From Desulfurococcales archaeon (lineage in GTDB: Archaea > Thermoproteota > Thermoprotei_A > Sulfolobales > Fervidicoccaceae): a DNA stretch of 45,777 nt. The notes beneath the pieces are model-generated. The model was given only the letters and a program-made list of their open reading frames with translations, made no database searches and had not been told where the DNA came from. The stretch is taken from positions 1 through 45,777 of the forward strand of contig JALTXS010000102.1 of assembly GCA_027048265.1 (NCBI GenBank), written 5' to 3'. Positions within the stretch are counted from its first letter, which is position 1. Each line of letters starts with the position of its first letter. Of this stretch, positions 1-35,777 are shown one piece after another. Both the position numbers and the translations under genes were made by a program.

Positions 1-1688
1 CTCTTTTCACGTATGACTGCTGCTGTAAGCCCAGCTGCAGAGCTTCCCTTGCCAGTTGTGTACACGCCTCGAGGCGCTATCTTGCTGACATACTGGAGTA
101 GCTGACTATTATGCATAAAGATTCCCTGGGGCAAGACGAGGAAGTTCTCGTCATTTTCAACACTGATGTCGTATACATAGTCGTAGGCAGGGTTGGTTAG
201 AGTAACCTTTTCCACAGGCACGTATATAACCTGTCCCTCCTCTAGCTTGGGTAGAAGGTCGCCTATTTTTAGGTCAGCACCTTGCACAGGCTGCAACATA
301 TTCCCTCTCTTAACTAGGAAGCTGTGGTCCAGTGTCGCCTGGACCCGGGTGCCGTCTTTTAGAAGTACCTCCACCATGGCCCCTGGTGAGTTGTGTCTGA
401 TAAATGCCCGGATTTTTGACCACCTAGGTGTCCCGGTACCAGGTTCTATGGAGAGGGTGTAATACTCATATCCAACCCTATCTGTGCGGAAAACCTCCGT
501 GCCGTCACTGCTGACCTCAATCTCTTCCCTATGCTCTTCCATTAGATAATCAGTCACTTTAGCAATGTCTGCCCAGGTCTCGGAGCCCGGCTCTCCTTTG
601 CTCAGAAGAATCATGGTGCCCGGGGGAACGCTCTTAGCGGTTCCCGGGTCCCCTACTAACAGAATGTGTATGTCTCCCCTTATCCTCATCTTGTCCTGCG
701 TTTCCTTAGGTACTCCACCAAAGAGGGCTAGTGCTATCGCTTCCTTTATGTCCCATAAGCCATAGATGCCGGGGGCTATGCTTGTTATAATCTTCTTTCT
801 TATCCAGGGGTCTCTTGCCAGCTCGAGTATCTTCTGCTCGTCCTCGCGGGTTATCTCAACCTCCTCGAGCGTCTTTTGGCTCACCTCTAGGCCAATTACT
901 TCAAGGAACTTGTCGTAGACGGGGAGTGTCTTCTTAACCGGGTTCTGTATCCTTAGCACGCCCACAGCACTTATACGATCCCCTGGCCTTGCCCTGTCTA
1001 CGAGGTCCCTGCTCACAATGGCTTCCACACTCCTGGGTATCTGGCCGGGTGGGACCTCCTCCGGTCTCTCCTGTATCACTATTTTCTGCCAGTCAACATA
1101 CCTGCTCTTTTCTGGAACAAGTCTTATGTTGCCTGGTCTCTGGCACTTGGGGCAGAATGGAGGGGTTTCGAGCGTCTCGCCAATCTCACCTTCTTCAGGC
1201 CACTCGAACTCTGCCCCGCATTTGGGGTCCATGTGCTTGAAGACGGCCTTCACCATCTTCTCTTTTACGGGCGTCGCCCTCACTAGTATGCCTTCAACCA
1301 TTACTAGCCTGTTTATAAACTCGCTTCCCAGCTTTCGTATAGGTGTCGCTCTGAGAAGCTTAACAATTCTTACAAAGAACCTATCATGCTGTTCGAGGTA
1401 CTGGGGGTTCGTGTTTGACACGACGCTGGTCAGGGCATTGTTAAACAAGGGGAGCATACCATCGGGGTCTCTCTCAAGTTGTAGTGCAAGCGTGTGATCG
1501 TAATGGTAAAGGTCGGGAAAGTCCACATGAATAGAGTATTCGCCAGATGACATCATCTGCTTTATGCGCTCCATGTACTTGCGCTCTCCCGAAGGCGTCG
1601 TATATTCTCTAAGAAACTGTGCGAACTTCGCCTCGTAATCCATCTCTTCTAGAAGAGCTTCACTATCAAACCCTGTGTCCTCACCCAT
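1..1688 (-). CDS. mcm: MCM replicative helicase, 5' two-thirds (3' end runs off the left window edge); interrupted by an in-frame mini-intein
   Basis: Absent from the ORF track because it is open at the edge. Hand translation of the minus frame from ATG 1688 gives MGEDTGFDSEALLEEMDYEAKF... It has a Zn-finger region (KCGAEF..FCPKCQ) and a Walker A read as GDIHILLVGDPGTAK-[175 aa]-SQLLQYVSKIAPRGVYTTGKGSSAAGLTAAVIREK. I met no stop codon where I checked base by base (3..659) or in the quicker read of the rest. Confidence 0.93.
   Translation of the reverse strand, partial: MGEDTGFDSEALLEEMDYEAKFAQFLREYTTPSGERKYMERIKQMMSSGEYSIHVDFPDLYHYDHTLALQLERDPDGMLPLFNNALTSVVSNTNPQYLEQHDRFFVRIVKLLRATPIRKLGSEFINRLVMVEGILVRATPVKEKMVKAVFKHMDPKCGAEFEWPEEGEIGETLETPPFCPKCQRPGNIRLVPEKSRYVDWQKIVIQERPEEVPPGQIPRSVEAIVSRDLVDRARPGDRISAVGVLRIQNPVKKTLPVYDKFLEVIGLEVSQKTLEEVEITREDEQKILELARDPWIRKKIITSIAPGIYGLWDIKEAIALALFGGVPKETQDKMRIRGDIHILLVGDPGTAKSVPPGTMILLSKGEPGSETWADIAKVTDYLMEEHREEIEVSSDGTEVFRTDRVGYEYYTLSIEPGTGTPRWSKIRAFIRHNSPGAMVEVLLKDGTRVQATLDHSFLVKRGNMLQPVQGADLKIGDLLPKLEEGQVIYVPVEKVTLTNPAYDYVYDISVENDENFLVLPQGIFMHNSQLLQYVSKIAPRGVYTTGKGSSAAGLTAAVIREK
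108..632 (-). mobile_element. Mini-intein (175 aa, Hint domain only) inserted in the MCM P-loop between K and S of GDPGTAK|S
   Basis: Codon-by-codon translation gives SVPPGTMILL... (block A, Ser1), KDGTRVQATLDHSFLV (block B, TxxH), YVYDISVENDENFLV (block F) and GIFMHN followed by +1 Ser (block G). There is no room for an endonuclease domain. Removing it restores the canonical GDPGTAKSQLLQYV. Confidence 0.85.
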
Positions 1689-1734: not shown

Positions 1735-2310
1735 TCAGATGCTTTCGCTCCCCAAGATCTTGGACCTCCATTCTCTTATTAAGTTTCTCAGCTCGTCTAA
1801 AAGCACCTGCTCTTCTGGAGTCAAACGGGCCGATATCTGGCTGGACATCTTTTCGTCCAGTGAGGACAAGGCTATTGTCTGCAACCTTTTGTCCACAATC
1901 TCGTTTAAGTAATCATGCATTCTCCTCTTTTCCTCTATCAACTGTGGCTCCGGGTTTTCCCTTATTCTCCTATCTAGGTTAGCAAGATAATCTCTGACGA
2001 GCCAGTAAAAGTTGTCAGGAAGCTGTTCTATGTCCTTAAGGGAGACCCTCTGCATCTCCCTATAATGTATACGTATAACATCCTCAATACTTACATCGTC
2101 CCACAGTATAGATACGGTTTTCTCATCCTCGAGCACACGGGCCATCCATCTAGGTATCTCAATCTTATCTCCCCTTTGTGCAGTTATCACGGTCCCATCT
2201 GGAAGCACCATCCTATCAATACTCTTAAGGGCTATTACCTTTGTCATCGTGTTCTCATATGCTTTTTCAAGCAAAGTCAGCCTAGTGGTCATTTTATCCA
2301 TTATTAACAT
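1735..2310 (-). CDS. gins23: GINS complex subunit (Gins23-type, by position directly upstream of mcm)
   Basis: About 190-aa ORF ending 47 nt before the mcm ATG. It carries an A-domain-like helix, NEIVDKRLQTIALSSL (the R..KI...A pattern of GINS). The gins23-mcm arrangement is as in Sulfolobus. The track start at 2316 is GTG; ATG 2310 follows a GGAGTGGTGA Shine-Dalgarno-like run. Confidence 0.65.
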   Translation of the reverse strand: MLIMDKMTTRLTLLEKAYENTMTKVIALKSIDRMVLPDGTVITAQRGDKIEIPRWMARVLEDEKTVSILWDDVSIEDVIRIHYREMQRVSLKDIEQLPDNFYWLVRDYLANLDRRIRENPEPQLIEEKRRMHDYLNEIVDKRLQTIALSSLDEKMSSQISARLTPEEQVLLDELRNLIREWRSKILGSESI

Positions 2311-2469
2311 CACCACTCCTTACAAATGTCGAGACCCCTACAAGTACCAAATACGTTAGTCCAAAGCTATATTGTTTGGTTGTTTTACCCACAAGCAAGA
2401 CTGTTCTTGTATCCTGCCCTATTTTTGGAAAAACAATTATCAGATTAGAGTCTGGGGGAATACTCTTTG

Positions 2470-18193: not shown

Positions 18194-19318
18194 TTATCCG
18201 ACGCTCTCTTCATGCTCGGCTAGGTACTTTTCCAAGGAGCCCAGTATCCTTTTTATAAGGCTTGGCATATCCCTCTTGGCAAAACGGCGCTTGATCAAAT
18301 ACACTCCAGCCCTATTGTGACCAAGAGGGCCCTCGGCCGATTGCCCCAACGCTCTCGCCATTGCCTTGTGCAACACGACTACAAGCTCTTCGGGGGCACC
18401 ATCTCTCACTCTGTAAGTTATCCTCGTGTAATTCTTTCCAGGATTTGCAACAAACCCTGCATCGGCGCCCAGTTGCAGAAACACTGACAAGACTGCTGAC
18501 TCCTCGCTTCCCACGAAAGTACCAGCCACAATAAACTGATTTGTATGAAGCTGGAGCCTCTGGAGAGCTTTGAAAAGCGCTATTGTTTCCGGCCGGCTCC
18601 TCCTAGACCGGGGCATCATATCCATGGCGGCATCGTAATCACAGTAGCTTGAAAGATAAGCCATCGCTTCAAAGGTTAACGGGCCTGCTCTGGAAAAACG
18701 TGAGGTATCCGCTATTATCCCCAACTGGAGCATACAATAGAGCCTCTCCTTGACCTCGACACCCAGCTCCTTCGACAGAAGCGCAACTATCTCCGAACTC
18801 GAGTAAAAACTGTCATCAACAAAGTAGTGCTTAGAGTACTTGATCAGGCTGTTACGTGCATGGTGGTCGATTAGCATATCAATGCCCTTTGAAACAAGGA
18901 CTTCTCCCAAATGTGATAAGTGTGAAAGTGATGCTGTATCAACAACCAGTAAGGATACCCGCTTCCCCACTCCTTGTAATGACTCTGTTTGTACATTGTC
19001 CTGGTTTAACAGGTGTTCTACATTATCTCTGTTACGAACTATAACTGTCGGGCAAAGTACCTTTCCTACTACAATATCATAGATTGATAACGCTGTGCTC
19101 GAAAAGCCTTCAGGTACTAACACGGAACACCTCGTCGTTGCACCCGAGAGGCTGGTAACTAGATTGCATAGATGGCAAGAGGACGCTATCGCGTCTACAT
19201 CCGCGTGCCTGTGTACGATAATGTAGACTTGTGCAGACTGCTTCACTATACTCTCAAACTTCTCGCTCAGTCCCTTTATCTCTATTTTCTTCCTCTCTAC
19301 TTCTCTCAATCTGCTCAA
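18194..19318 (-). CDS. DHH-family phosphoesterase (NrnA/COG0618-like, with a DHHA1-like C-terminus)
   Basis: Motif I HRHADVDAIAS, motif II LLVVDTAS, motif III LIDHHA, motif IV GIIADTSRF, and C-terminal GHNRAGV resembling GGGH..AAG. TTG start. Confidence 0.75.
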   Translation of the reverse strand: MSRLREVERKKIEIKGLSEKFESIVKQSAQVYIIVHRHADVDAIASSCHLCNLVTSLSGATTRCSVLVPEGFSSTALSIYDIVVGKVLCPTVIVRNRDNVEHLLNQDNVQTESLQGVGKRVSLLVVDTASLSHLSHLGEVLVSKGIDMLIDHHARNSLIKYSKHYFVDDSFYSSSEIVALLSKELGVEVKERLYCMLQLGIIADTSRFSRAGPLTFEAMAYLSSYCDYDAAMDMMPRSRRSRPETIALFKALQRLQLHTNQFIVAGTFVGSEESAVLSVFLQLGADAGFVANPGKNYTRITYRVRDGAPEELVVVLHKAMARALGQSAEGPLGHNRAGVYLIKRRFAKRDMPSLIKRILGSLEKYLAEHEESVG

Positions 19319-31219: not shown

Positions 31220-31440
31220 GTCGTCGCCGATGTCGATTATTTTTCTAGTTGCCTGCAAGGTCGTCCACCTACTCCCGAGATCTCGACCAACCCATAGTAT
31301 CCACCTTGATAAGGATTATAATAATTTCCTCCAAATAGTTTGGAGACGCTAACATTAATAATGCCTCGACATGCTTACCAATGAACAGTCAAGTGACGGT
31401 AGAGGAAACATCACTACGGTGGATCGCCTTGACCAACTCC

Positions 31441-32106
31441 ATGTACCACTACATTGCAGAAGCCTGGAAGCGCCCCTATGAGGGTGAGCATAAGGAGCTC
31501 ATGAAACAGCGGCTAATAAAATGGAGGAGAGAGCCAGCGGTAGTAAGGGTTGAACGACCCACACGACTAGACAGGGCCAGAAGTCTTGGGTACAAGGCCA
31601 AGCAGGGAATTATAGTAGTCAGAGTGAGGGTGAGAAAGGGGGGGATGAGGAAGGAGAGACCCAACAAGGGCAGGAGACCCAAGAGAATGGGCGTTTACGG
31701 ATACAGCCCGGCTAAAAGCCTGAGGCTCATAGCTGAAGAGAGGGCTGCTAGAAAGTATCCTAACCTCGAAGTCTTGAACAGCTACTATGTTGGAGAAGAT
31801 GGCAATTATAAGTGGTTTGAAGTAATACTTGTCGACCCTCATCATCCTGCGATTAAGAGTGATCCCGAGCTTAAATGGATTACAAGGAAAGTGCACAAGG
31901 GAAGAGTGTTTAGAGGCCTGACCAGTGCCGGTAAGAAGATGAGAGGCCTTAGGAAATCGCGTGGTCTAAAAGGCACTATTAAGCACAAGTTCAAAAAGAA
32001 ACTTAAAGAAAGAAGACTGAAGAAACGCCACGAGGCTAGTCGTGGGGCCCGCCTAATTGCTCCTGAAGATATCCTTAGAAAGTATCACAAAGATGACTTG
32101 CAGTAA
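31441..32106 (+). CDS. rpl15e: Ribosomal protein L15e (eL15), crenarchaeal long form
   Basis: [12 protein letters not shown]..., [27 protein letters not shown], and a basic C-terminal extension [19 protein letters not shown]. Confidence 0.93.
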
Positions 32107-32459
32107 ACTTTACTACTCTAGAAATATTTTAGCTTAATAACCACCACCCTCGTGTATCTCGCAGCTACTGTTTCTCGTCATTCAGAAACCCAGACACCAA
32201 TAGTTGTTTATTACGTCTCTCTCTTTTTATCTGAAGCTGCCTATGGGTTGTTCTACTTTATTGTTGTTCAAGTACATTCACCGAGAAAATAATAACTGTA
32301 ATAAAGTGCATTAGAAATGGCTTGTAACAATCAAAACACGTTTCCAGAAGTTGTAACAGATTTTAAGGAGGCTGGGGTGTCACGACTGTAGGGCTTGTTG
32401 AGTCGCAGCTCGGAGTCATAGGTAACAAGTTATCTCAGCTCCTCAGCAAGCATGGAGAG

Positions 32460-33566
32460 TTGAATCTAACATCTATACCCTCGTTCGACCATTATCTTTC
32501 TTCGCTTGTTCTTCAATCAATCTTGGCTGAGAAGAGTATCGAGTCCCAGATTGAGCTATCATATAATTCCCCCCATTTGAAGGACAATGTTCCCCATCTC
32601 ATGGTGGGCTTTAACAAAACCAAGCCGGAGCCAAGTAGCATAACGTTGAGAATAAATGGGGAGGTTTTGGTGGCTAAGCCTGGTATACCTGTATCGGCGT
32701 CAATGCTTGTCTTAGTAGAAGGAATAAGTATATTGGGTGAGGTCCACCGGAGTCTGCTTGCAGCGTCAACTATTTCCGGTGATAAGCTATTCAGGGATCC
32801 TAGCAACCTAGACAAGTTCAACGAGCACTCGTCCCAAAGTGTAGAGTTGTGGGGGAAGTTTCTCGCCTTTTTCGCTAGTGAAGGCTACAATGTTGCGGAC
32901 TCTCTGTACGCTACTTCCTTTCCTTACTTGCCCAACATAACCGGTGTGAGATCTGGCGATGTTTTGAAGATGTTGGAGAACACGGGCATCAGTAGCGGGA
33001 AAAGCCTGACTGAAATAACGAGTGAGGAGGGCAAGAGGCTTGTCGAGGAGGTTCTGAAGAACATTAACAAGAAAGCGAAAAAGATAGTGGCTTCTAACTC
33101 CTTGGTATCCTACCTGCCAATGGTCAAGGTCCAGGGTAGACGGATAGACCTCAGAGAAATTGCTGCATCCCTAGCTATACTCGCCGAACTTAGCCTTGGA
33201 ACGATATTAGACTGTATGGCACGTAACACTATCAAGGTTCTTTTAGAAGAATACTACTACTCGCTCAACCTTATAGCAAATATTGTGGAGGACATATTGG
33301 AGAGAAAGAGCCTTGTATACAAGGGTAATATAGTAGTAATAGAAGAACCTCCTCGTGGACCTGATATGTTTCCCTTCAGTTACGTCTCATCAGCTTTGGA
33401 ATTCCTCGGGTACTTGGACCAGGCACAGTTGCTGGCAGCGGAAGACGACGGGGTCATTGTAACCAACAAGTATGAAGCGTGGAAGCACAGGTCCAGTGTG
33501 CCACTAAATAAGTTCACCCAGATAGACCATACATTGATAACTGTCCGCCCACAGGGGGAGGTTTAA
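32460..33566 (+). CDS. Hypothetical protein (368 aa) with no family recognised; translationally coupled to the downstream Pcc1-like gene
   Basis: Long ORF with protein-like composition. Its TAA overlaps the ATG of the next gene by 1 nt. The only candidate start is TTG 32460. It has an HhH-like stretch, LPNITGVRSGDVLKMLENTGI. Confidence 0.6.
   Translation: MNLTSIPSFDHYLSSLVLQSILAEKSIESQIELSYNSPHLKDNVPHLMVGFNKTKPEPSSITLRINGEVLVAKPGIPVSASMLVLVEGISILGEVHRSLLAASTISGDKLFRDPSNLDKFNEHSSQSVELWGKFLAFFASEGYNVADSLYATSFPYLPNITGVRSGDVLKMLENTGISSGKSLTEITSEEGKRLVEEVLKNINKKAKKIVASNSLVSYLPMVKVQGRRIDLREIAASLAILAELSLGTILDCMARNTIKVLLEEYYYSLNLIANIVEDILERKSLVYKGNIVVIEEPPRGPDMFPFSYVSSALEFLGYLDQAQLLAAEDDGVIVTNKYEAWKHRSSVPLNKFTQIDHTLITVRPQGEV
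33554..33562 (+). promoter_or_regulatory. Shine-Dalgarno-like site for the Pcc1-paralog gene
   Basis: GGGGGAGGT lies a few nt upstream of ATG 33566, inside the 3' end of the upstream ORF. Confidence 0.5.
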
Positions 33567-33817
33567 TGAAGATAACAGTCTGGATAGAAGTTGGTTCGAA
33601 TGATGAGAAGATTGTGGAATCCCTATACAAGTCCTTGAAGCCCGACAATAGGGGATTCCCGACAGGTATAAGGTTTAGTGAGCAGCTTCTGAGCAACAAA
33701 CTGGTATATAGCCTGGAGGCTGACGAAAACTCCTTGAAGAGCCTGAGGAACACCGTAGACGACCTCCTTGAGAGCCTGGAGACTGTGGAAAGAGTGCTGT
33801 TTAGAGAAGAAGACTAG
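33566..33817 (+). CDS. Pcc1-family paralog (candidate Pcc2 KEOPS subunit)
   Basis: 83 aa. IVESLYKSLKPDN...LVYSLEADENSLKSLRNTVDDLLESLETVERVL follows the Pcc1 fold pattern (..sl.Pd.., a.d..sLR.tvn..l). It is the second such gene in this window. Confidence 0.55.
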   Translation: MKITVWIEVGSNDEKIVESLYKSLKPDNRGFPTGIRFSEQLLSNKLVYSLEADENSLKSLRNTVDDLLESLETVERVLFREED

Positions 33818-33884: not shown

Positions 33885-34511
33885 ATGTCAAGGAGGCGCG
33901 ATGTCAGGGATAAGTGGAAGCTAAAGAGATGGTACACCATTGTGGCACCACCTGTATTTGGGGAAGCCCCTGTTGGAACGACTCCTGCTGATGATCCCAA
34001 TAAGCTCATAGGCAGAGTAATCGAGACCACCTTGTACGATATTACAGGCGACTACATGCAGGTCCACATAAAGCTAAGGTTCCAGGTGATCGAGGTAGAC
34101 GGCAACGTAGCTAAGACGAGGTTCAAGGGACACGAACTCGCGCGTGATTACATCAAAGTCTTAACGAGGAGAAAGAGCAGTAAGATACAGGGTATATTCA
34201 ACGTTGAGACAAAGGATGGCTATGGTCTCAGGGTAACTGTAATGGTTTTCACATCATATAGGTGCAAGACGAGTCAGAAGAAAGCTATTAGGAAAATCAT
34301 GAAAGAAATAGTGGAGAAGACCGCTAGAGAGCAGACCTTCGACGAGTTTATACAGTCTATGATATTTGATAAGATATCAGCGGAAATATTTGAGCAGGCT
34401 AAGAAGATATACCCCATAAGAAAGGTGGAGGTCTACAAGTCAAAGCTCTTAACGATACCCGGGCCACATGGTCCCATGAAGGCTGTTGTTCTACCGCCAA
34501 TTTCAAGGTAA
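33885..34511 (+). CDS. rps3ae: Ribosomal protein S3Ae (eS1)
   Basis: MSRRRDVRDKWKLKRWYTIVAPPVFG...GRVIETTLYDITGDY. Confidence 0.93.
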   Translation: MSRRRDVRDKWKLKRWYTIVAPPVFGEAPVGTTPADDPNKLIGRVIETTLYDITGDYMQVHIKLRFQVIEVDGNVAKTRFKGHELARDYIKVLTRRKSSKIQGIFNVETKDGYGLRVTVMVFTSYRCKTSQKKAIRKIMKEIVEKTAREQTFDEFIQSMIFDKISAEIFEQAKKIYPIRKVEVYKSKLLTIPGPHGPMKAVVLPPISR

Positions 34512-34709: not shown

Positions 34710-35777
34710 TTGGCTGAGGAGCTTTGCTCTTTTAACATACTGCTTACTACGGGTTTGGGTAAGGAGGAGATTGCCGCAAGTTTCGTAGAGGAAGAAAGGA
34801 ACGTAGAATCAGTCATGCCCAGGCCCCTAGGGTTTAAAGGTCTTGTCCTAGTCAGATGCTCAGAGCCTGAAAACTGCCTTGCCAGCCTTTTGAAAGGAAA
34901 TGTTTTTATCGAAAAAGGATTCGTTGTGAAGGCGTGTGTTGAAGCGGAGATTGATAAAATAACTAAAGCGTCCCTAGACATTGCTAGGAAAGTAATAGGG
35001 AAGCATAACAGTTTCGCTGTAAGGACTGTGAGGAGAGGGAGTCATGATTTTTCAAGTATTGATGTCAACGTCAATGTGGGCAGAGAGGTTCAACTCGCCA
35101 CCGGAGCCCGTGTTGACCTAGAAAACCCCGACTATACTATTCTTATCAATATCTTGGGACCCGTAGCGTTCATTTCCCTTGTAGAAAACATGCCAACTAG
35201 GCCGAAAAGGTGGAAGGAGAAGACGCCCTTCTACAAGTTTTTCAACAGAGTAATAGTAGTCCAGGAGCCCTACTTGTCCCATGATCTAGAGGCATGCTTC
35301 AAAATGGGTGAGAGAGTAGGAAGAGCTCTGCAGACCTACGAGGTCGGAGACTATTACATTGCCCTAACCAAACCGGTAGATTCACGCCAACTAGGTGAGT
35401 ACATGAGAGGCGTCACTGAAGGTATTGAATCAAGATACAGCATCCAGTTGAAAAGCTATTCCAGGAAACCCGTTAAAACCAAGGTCCGCGTATACGAGTT
35501 ACATCTTCTAATAAGGAGTTTCAGGGATAATCCCATAATTATATTCGAGCCGGAAGGAGAATATGTGGCAAAAGTTTCGGACAAACTGGCCAGGATAATC
35601 CAGAGAGGTAAACGCCCCGTGCTCGTATTCGGTGCTAGAGAAGGAGTTCCCACAGGGCTTTTCAGGTTCGCAGAACTCGTGGTAGACATCGCACCTGGAA
35701 TGACGCTTTCAACCGAACAGGCTCTTACAGCGGCGTTTGGCGTCCTAACTGTTATTCTGGGTGGGGAGCAGGCATGA
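34710..35777 (+). CDS. THUMP-domain protein fused to a SPOUT-type RNA methyltransferase (AF2226-like)
   Basis: N-terminal half: FNILLTTGLGKEEIA...FAVRTVRRGSHDFSSIDVNVNVGREV...VDLENPDYTILINILG (ferredoxin-like plus THUMP). C-terminal half: PVLVFGAREGVPTGLFRFAELVVDIAPGMTLSTEQALTAAFGVL (trefoil-knot SPOUT pattern). TTG start. Confidence 0.7.
   Translation: MAEELCSFNILLTTGLGKEEIAASFVEEERNVESVMPRPLGFKGLVLVRCSEPENCLASLLKGNVFIEKGFVVKACVEAEIDKITKASLDIARKVIGKHNSFAVRTVRRGSHDFSSIDVNVNVGREVQLATGARVDLENPDYTILINILGPVAFISLVENMPTRPKRWKEKTPFYKFFNRVIVVQEPYLSHDLEACFKMGERVGRALQTYEVGDYYIALTKPVDSRQLGEYMRGVTEGIESRYSIQLKSYSRKPVKTKVRVYELHLLIRSFRDNPIIIFEPEGEYVAKVSDKLARIIQRGKRPVLVFGAREGVPTGLFRFAELVVDIAPGMTLSTEQALTAAFGVLTVILGGEQA

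Follow-up and report, generated by a model that had tools for sequence, protein, structure and literature searches.

What is the protein encoded by an apparently orphan open reading frame of 368 codons that overlaps the gene for a small Pcc1-like protein, and does this arrangement bring a new partner to the KEOPS complex? The question is raised by a locus in the stretch of Desulfurococcales DNA analysed here, which is 45,777 nucleotides long and is referred to below as the window. A sequence-only reading of this locus had found the longer product impossible to place in any family and had proposed it as an undescribed partner of KEOPS, with a degenerate RecJ/Cdc45-like protein as a speculative alternative. 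The family profile, the predicted fold and the synteny described below all favour that alternative. We are highly confident that the 368 aa protein is a Cdc45/RecJ (GAN) orthologue whose DHH centre is dead, that its 83 aa partner is Pcc2, and that the two form a standard archaeal pair. The longer protein matches a well-characterised family, an outcome that the sequence-only reading had itself named as counting against its proposal, and the idea of an undescribed KEOPS partner is given up here.

Overlapping frames and the start of the upstream gene

The two open reading frames share one base at the sequence TAATG (Table 1), in which TAA (33564-66) ends the first frame and ATG (33566-68) begins the second. 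A Shine-Dalgarno-like element, GGGGGAGGT, is located at 33554-33562 (+) within the 3' end of the RecJ-like gene and ends 3 nt 5' of the ATG of the 83 aa ORF; as read from the sequence, its GGAGG core lies 4 nt ahead of that codon. The shared base and the element preceding the second ATG had both been pointed out previously, and both are confirmed, as is the presence of the quoted motifs KSLKPDN, ...LRNTVDDLL and LPNITGVRSGDVLKMLENTGI. The description of the two genes as a tightly coupled pair is equally sound, as a near-zero junction recurs in relatives: in 44 related loci, the RecJ stop codon and the first Pcc2 codon aligned by the HMM are separated by a median of 1.5 nt, and in 42 of them by no more than 40 nt. 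The corresponding rps15-gan-pcc1(TK1253)-rps3 operon of T. kodakarensis is co-transcribed, and gan overlaps pcc1 by 23 nt (PMC5737688). Given the tight junction in these 42 loci and the gan overlap, the coupling is ancestral. The one-base overlap and the internal Shine-Dalgarno element would represent an old, compact operon junction that ensures co-expression. The stop/start overlap is not in itself evidence for a complex between the RecJ-like protein and Pcc2.

Table 1. Features of the locus and of related genes elsewhere in the window, in window coordinates.
Feature	Position	Strand	Basis or remark
Cdc45/RecJ (GAN-type) orthologue, catalytically inactive	32367..33566	+	full open frame, 399 codons
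368 aa ORF	32460..33566	+	TTG start
CID core	32928..32990	+	profile A1 alignment
Stop/start overlap TAATG	33564..33568	+	translational coupling junction
KEOPS subunit Pcc2, 83 aa ORF	33566..33817	+	ATG start; Pfam, NCBIfam, AF2/Foldseek, box-2 signature, tree
Ribosomal protein L15e	31381..32106	+	Pfam; upstream neighbour of RecJ-like gene
Ribosomal protein S3Ae	33885..34511	+	Pfam, synteny; conserved downstream neighbour
THUMP-SPOUT methyltransferase	34710..35777		Pfam; flank of S3Ae
Canonical KEOPS Pcc1, 93 aa	20249..20530	-	between Brix-domain and prefoldin-beta genes
GINS subunit	1735..2316	-	Pfam Sld5, 24.5 bits vs cut-off 22.3
MCM helicase, N-terminal part, with intein	3..1688	-	Pfam MCM_N, MCM_OB, MCM, Intein_splicing; cut by contig end

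The 368 aa ORF covers only what follows the first canonical start codon of the gene. The open frame extends back to 32367, which adds 31 codons of conserved coding sequence upstream of the TTG at 32460, and no in-frame ATG, GTG or TTG is present between 32367 and 32459. In a sister genome (91-92% identity) this TTG is replaced by TTA, and the 31 upstream codons encode the same amino acids except for one H/Y change; over the first 17 of these codons, the only differences seen are five synonymous third-position changes. The match to the family profile (32391-33545) likewise begins 5' of the TTG, and the upstream codons align with the N-terminal helix of all homologues and PDB targets, the latter being aligned from residues 18-38 onward. 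Two relatives, 43% and 47% identical, carry the same G-rich Shine-Dalgarno-like element with a conserved in-frame ACG after it. Candidate explanations for the start of this gene are non-canonical initiation, a shorter N-terminus or something else, and the candidate start codons are ACG 32382, ATA 32418 and TTG 32460. A programmed frameshift from an upstream ORF in the +1 frame (ATG 32317 or GTG 32377, TAG 32389-91) was considered but found no support: no slippery heptamer is found in 32367-32388, the lone workable slip site (G GGA), seen in the relative L040, is without a counterpart here, and another relative, L041, needs no shift. An Rfam scan of 32050-32520 yielded no match.

Family and active site of the RecJ-like protein

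When the 368 aa protein was used alone, phmmer gave no match in the PDB, and comparison with Pfam gave only noise, with DHH_CID not reached. A word-indexed protein search returned two matches, the protein itself and one 47% relative. Exhaustive phmmer, by comparison, recovered 16 proteins of 346-409 aa, mostly with 20-28% identity, and these were combined into an alignment and profile, termed A1, from which one match of 954 aa was left out. Profile A1 matches the RecJ of P. furiosus (5x4h, E 6.3e-10) and the GAN of T. kodakarensis (5ghr, E 3.8e-9), as well as 7bhi (M. thermautotrophicus RecJ-Cdc45) and 6tvv, and M. jannaschii RecJ2 is also among its matches. The description of the protein as an orphan is accurate for single-sequence searches and fails once a family profile or a fold is used.

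The region of similarity includes the CID, to which A1 positions 146-234 align in both 5x4h and 5ghr. Pfam DHH_CID (PF21763) is matched by three of the 16 family members (best E 3.7e-9), so that the CID signature is reached at the level of the family only, and the window protein alone misses PF21763. The sole invariant columns of A1, T152 and P155, are found immediately 5' of a stretch that had been described as 'HhH-like', and which is actually the most conserved part of this CID (CMG-interacting) domain.

An AlphaFold2 model of the 368 aa protein built on A1 (pLDDT 88.5, pTM 0.90) was compared with known structures by Foldseek, as the sequence-only reading had suggested. At E<=1e-3 there are 41 matches, every one of them an archaeal RecJ/GAN or a eukaryotic Cdc45 protein, and they extend over the whole chain, with a best E of 5e-10. 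VIA-align superimposes 323 residues of the model on M. thermautotrophicus RecJ-Cdc45 (7bih) with Z 20.3 and an rmsd of 4.9. The Z score is 17.7 for P. furiosus RecJ (5x4h), 12-15 for human, yeast and Entamoeba Cdc45, about 9.5 for bacterial RecJ, and 7-8 for NrnA-type DHH enzymes. The AF2, Foldseek and VIA-align results together reveal a three-part architecture that consists of a DHH domain, a helical CID insertion and a DHHA1 domain. The window encodes one other DHH protein (18194..19318), which was ruled out as an alternative Cdc45; it is NrnA-like and carries no CID.

To compare motifs, the A1 family was aligned with 20 S15-adjacent RecJ proteins from other classes of the same phylum. These are encoded by open frames of 440-510 aa between S15 and Pcc2/S3Ae, match Pfam DHH_CID and retain intact motifs. 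Relative to active RecJ, the window protein carries I.SFD in place of H.DAD, N.TKP in place of D.GSG, KPG in place of DHH, and STISG in place of GALGD, and it is devoid of both the NPH..G.DG segment and the GGGH motif of DHHA1. Of DHH motifs I-IV (DxD, D, DHH, D) and GGGH, all sought in the window protein by alignment, none is kept. None of these motif columns is conserved among the 16 members of the A1 family, and the loss is therefore common to the whole family. Because every metal-binding and catalytic motif is lost, the window protein, despite its Cdc45/RecJ fold, is predicted to be incapable of acting as a DHH nuclease and is most likely structural.

Active relatives of this protein are found among the GAN/RecJ-Cdc45 proteins of Euryarchaeota (TK1252, P. 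furiosus, M. thermautotrophicus; 5ghr, 5x4h, 7bih). The two groups share the DHH-CID-DHHA1 architecture (Z 17-20), sequence similarity in the CID, and an identical place in the operon, where an overlapping Pcc2 gene and then S3Ae come next. However, the euryarchaeal proteins, of about 430-480 aa, are active nucleases that depend on Mn, whereas the window protein is about 80-100 aa shorter and has its motifs substituted or deleted. A crenarchaeal nuclease-dead derivative of RecJ is also known from Sulfolobus, namely RecJdbh/Cdc45 (SSO0295, NF053566), to which the window family shows weak similarity in the CID region (E 0.002). The window protein misses the cut-off of the NCBIfam SSO0295/RecJdbh family (NF053566) with 17.1 bits against 350, which marks the window family as a lineage-specific family separate from SSO0295.

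A closer counterpart has been described in Desulfurococcales, where the active arCOG00427 is missing and arCOG00432, with an apparently inactivated DHH domain, takes its place in the same context (Makarova et al., 2012; PMC3307487). The window protein resembles arCOG00432 in taxon, in its slot beside Pcc and S3Ae, in fold and in its degenerate DHH domain. The window clade differs in that the upstream neighbour in this genus is L15e rather than S15, in that the clade is strongly diverged (about 24% identity with the other genera in its family), and in that its gene has no canonical start codon. On the basis of taxon, context and motif loss, as compared with the published description (PMC3307487), we infer that the window protein belongs with arCOG00432.

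Identity of the 83 aa protein

The 83 aa product had been proposed as a Pcc1-family paralogue and candidate Pcc2, and this assignment is upheld by HMM scores, fold, box-2 signature and phylogeny. It scores 30.1 bits against Pfam Pcc1 (PF09341, cut-off 20.9) and 44.8 bits against NCBIfam NF011470 (cut-off 27); phmmer with this protein alone against the PDB gave repeat-protein noise only. Its AF2 model (pLDDT 85.6) has the secondary structure E-H-E-E-H, corresponding to the beta-alpha-beta-beta-alpha Pcc1 fold. The best Foldseek matches of the model are 7a67, 7a66 and 3eno, and all matches at E<=1e-3 are Pcc1, Pcc2 or LAGE3, with TM values of 0.62-0.80 (0.71-0.80 apart from one chain). The protein is only about 18-23% identical to the Pcc2 and Pcc1 chains of known structure.

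The two paralogues differ at box 2, where Pcc1 has N72-S/T73 and Pcc2 has D/E72-D/E73 (PMC9889334). In a profile-profile alignment, D65-D66 of the 83 aa protein falls opposite N74-A75 of the 93 aa Pcc1 of the window. The same division follows gene context, with D/E-D/E in 45 of 45 RecJ-adjacent copies versus N-S/A/T in 16 of 16 copies adjacent to Brix/prefoldin genes in the exosome operon. A maximum-likelihood tree of these 61 sequences, none of which is experimentally characterised, separates the RecJ-context and Brix/prefoldin-context groups by one branch with support of 100/99.8. A profile of the Pcc1-context copies (A3) matches Pcc1 chains of the PDB (E about 1e-16) but none of Pcc2, whereas the profile of the RecJ-context copies (A2) matches chains of both kinds. 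The A3 matches and N74-A75 at box 2 bear out the earlier view that the exosome-operon gene encodes the canonical Pcc1. Because P. abyssi Pcc2 ranks slightly below the Pcc1 chains of M. jannaschii and P. furiosus in A2 scores, the Pcc2 call rests on box-2 signature, synteny and tree, and not on raw HMM rank.

Synteny points in the same direction. The 83 aa gene occupies the position of TK1253, the gene adjoining gan, which has been named Pcc2 (Daugeron et al., 2023; PMC9889334), in that it overlaps the 3' end of RecJ/gan and is located upstream of S3Ae. Like Pcc2 (TK1253; P. abyssi PAB_RS00380; PMC9889334), the 83 aa protein combines the Pcc1-type fold with D/E-D/E at box 2, and its gene coexists with a canonical Pcc1. 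The 'Pcc1-like' SiRe_1701 (PMC10989989) is grouped with these Pcc2 proteins.

Gene neighbourhood, rival explanations and possible roles

Of the 61 genomes of the order, 45 contain a match to profile A1, nearly all of them at a single locus. Directly 3' of the RecJ-like gene, a Pcc2-profile ORF is present in 26 of 29 other order-level loci, and S3Ae comes next in 24 of these 26. S15 is located upstream in most loci, L15e taking this position in the genome studied here and in G001, and THUMP-SPOUT often comes after S3Ae; the window order is L15e-RecJ-Pcc2-S3Ae, while relatives have S15-RecJ-Pcc2-S3Ae-THUMP/SPOUT. At the level of the phylum, RecJ is the gene found between S15 and Pcc2/S3Ae in 20 loci. 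In the 47% identical relative L041, the genes Kae1-Bud32-Ham1-S15-RecJ-like-Pcc-S3Ae-THUMP/SPOUT are carried on one strand. A scan of genome contigs for relatives recovered the sister genome only, a Desulfurococcales MAG, and two metagenome scans, one with the window protein and one with profile A4, found no relatives.

The adjacency of the two genes is conserved in relatives but is not a new association, since the archaeal RecJ-Pcc-S3Ae neighbourhood has been published (Makarova et al., 2012; PMC3307487). RecJ-Pcc adjacency occurs in Euryarchaeota too (PMC3307487, PMC5737688). The arrangement having been described for archaea in 2012, the RecJ-Pcc2 pair is an ordinary one.

Two alternatives concern the nature of the genes themselves. 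The RecJ-like gene might be a decaying or non-expressed remnant, as the lack of a canonical start before the conserved N-terminus, the lack of catalytic motifs, and the replacement of the TTG by TTA in the sister genome could suggest. Yet the frame runs uninterrupted through 399 codons, the changes seen in the first 17 upstream codons are all synonymous, the AF2 model is confident, the gene is single copy and present in 45 of the 61 genomes, and the motif loss is common to the whole family, so that we regard decay as very improbable. Still less credible is that the 83 aa protein is a redundant second copy of the canonical Pcc1. Its matches to Pfam and NCBIfam models named 'Pcc1' and the slightly higher A2 scores of the M. 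jannaschii and P. furiosus Pcc1 chains would fit such a copy; these are countered by D65-D66 where Pcc1 has N-S/T, by the complete division of box 2 by context, by the strongly supported branch, by the failure of the Pcc1-context profile to match any Pcc2 chain where the RecJ-context profile does so, and by the TK1253 position of the gene. We thus retain the assignment as an inactive Cdc45/RecJ orthologue and Pcc2.

A further possibility is a physical or regulatory complex of the RecJ-like protein with Pcc2, such that the coupled pair links CMG to KEOPS. Retention of the adjacency throughout the order and the phylum, with a spacing that is close to zero or negative in 42 of 44 loci, the euryarchaeal pairing, the presence of Kae1 and Bud32 in the same same-strand array in L041, and an essential function of Sulfolobus KEOPS that is reportedly independent of t6A level (PMC10989989) are all compatible with such a complex. 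On the other hand, S15 and S3Ae belong to the same array, which therefore resembles a housekeeping 'superoperon', whose members may be co-expressed without interacting. Moreover, purifications place Pcc2 in KEOPS (PMC9889334) and GAN with GINS and MCM (PMC5737688), and neither reports the other. We consider such a complex unlikely, and it is correspondingly doubtful that the tight Cdc45/RecJ-Pcc2 pairing, which is kept in Euryarchaeota and Thermoproteota alike, including lineages with a dead nuclease, reflects a real CMG-KEOPS link. In that case Pcc2 might, for example, have a second function at the replisome or control the Cdc45:KEOPS stoichiometry.

Separate roles for an inactive Cdc45/RecJ orthologue and Pcc2 are suggested by analogy with better studied systems. 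RecJdbh of Sulfolobus binds GINS. The window RecJ-like protein most likely acts in a similar manner, as a structural, GINS-binding, Cdc45-like subunit of the CMG (Cdc45-MCM-GINS) helicase, a role that has been shown for the Sulfolobus protein and proposed for the Desulfurococcales group. Genes for the expected CMG partners, GINS and MCM, reside in the same window (Table 1). Pcc2 of Pyrococcus forms a heterodimer with Pcc1 on Kae1 and serves as a fifth KEOPS subunit in the synthesis of tRNA t6A; by analogy, the 83 aa protein would pair with Pcc1 on Kae1 in KEOPS.

The main value of these findings is for annotation. A gene that is blank in Pfam, NCBIfam and single-sequence PDB searches is the Cdc45/RecJ of this Desulfurococcales lineage, a replication factor of the essential class, and its small neighbour is to be named Pcc2, not Pcc1. 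Such fast-evolving Cdc45/RecJ proteins can be recognised from gene position combined with either a family profile or a predicted fold, and 45 further examples from Thermoproteota back the published sequence signature of Pcc2. The Cdc45/RecJ and Pcc2 genes have overlapped since the archaeal ancestor, and the reason for this is a testable question, if not a new one.

Initiation of the RecJ-like gene

The gene for the catalytically inactive Cdc45/RecJ orthologue (hereafter RecJ-like) has no canonical in-frame start ahead of the region encoding its conserved N-terminal helix. Its open frame begins at 32367, and the TTG at 32460 is replaced by TTA in the sister genome. A strong GGAGG (32367-71) precedes a GTG at 32377, which lies in the +1 frame relative to the RecJ-like gene; this frame, in which an ATG is also present upstream at 32317, terminates at a TAG (32389-91). 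The ATA at 32418 corresponds to TTG in a related locus, L040. Common to L040 and a second relative, L041, is a G-rich element resembling a Shine-Dalgarno sequence, followed by an in-frame ACG (32382-84 in the window). Non-canonical initiation is possible for this gene.

Other replication, DHH and KEOPS components

The MCM helicase gene is cut off by the contig end, and the remaining part appears to reside on another contig, C135. An intein-splicing domain sits within its P-loop domain.

Features of the window discussed in this section and the next
Feature	Position	Strand	Remark
MCM helicase gene	3-1688	-	cut off by contig end
GINS gene	1735..2316	-	immediately upstream of MCM gene
Second DHH-superfamily protein	18194-19318	-	adjoins exosome/Pcc1 cluster
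THUMP-SPOUT methyltransferase gene	34710-35777		after S3Ae

The second DHH-superfamily protein retains an intact Pfam DHH domain. We rejected it as a RecJ/Cdc45 candidate, as it instead resembles nanoRNase/pAp phosphodiesterases of the NrnA and TM1595 type.

The Pfam CGI-121 model for Cgi121 found no match in the genome of the window. Given that this genome is 61% complete and that the model also misses the Sulfolobus acidocaldarius control, this null result says little.

Gene neighbourhood in relatives

The upstream neighbour of the RecJ-like gene is L15e in the genus of the window, whereas it is S15 in L041, a relative with 47% identity. There, a single same-strand array (L041:1-6344) carries Kae1, Bud32, Ham1, S15, RecJ-like, Pcc2, S3Ae and THUMP-SPOUT genes, such that the Cdc45 gene is flanked by three KEOPS genes. 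Of the loci sampled order-wide (L044-L068), at least 11 likewise have a THUMP-SPOUT methyltransferase gene after S3Ae, and this gene is thus an additional conserved member of the neighbourhood.
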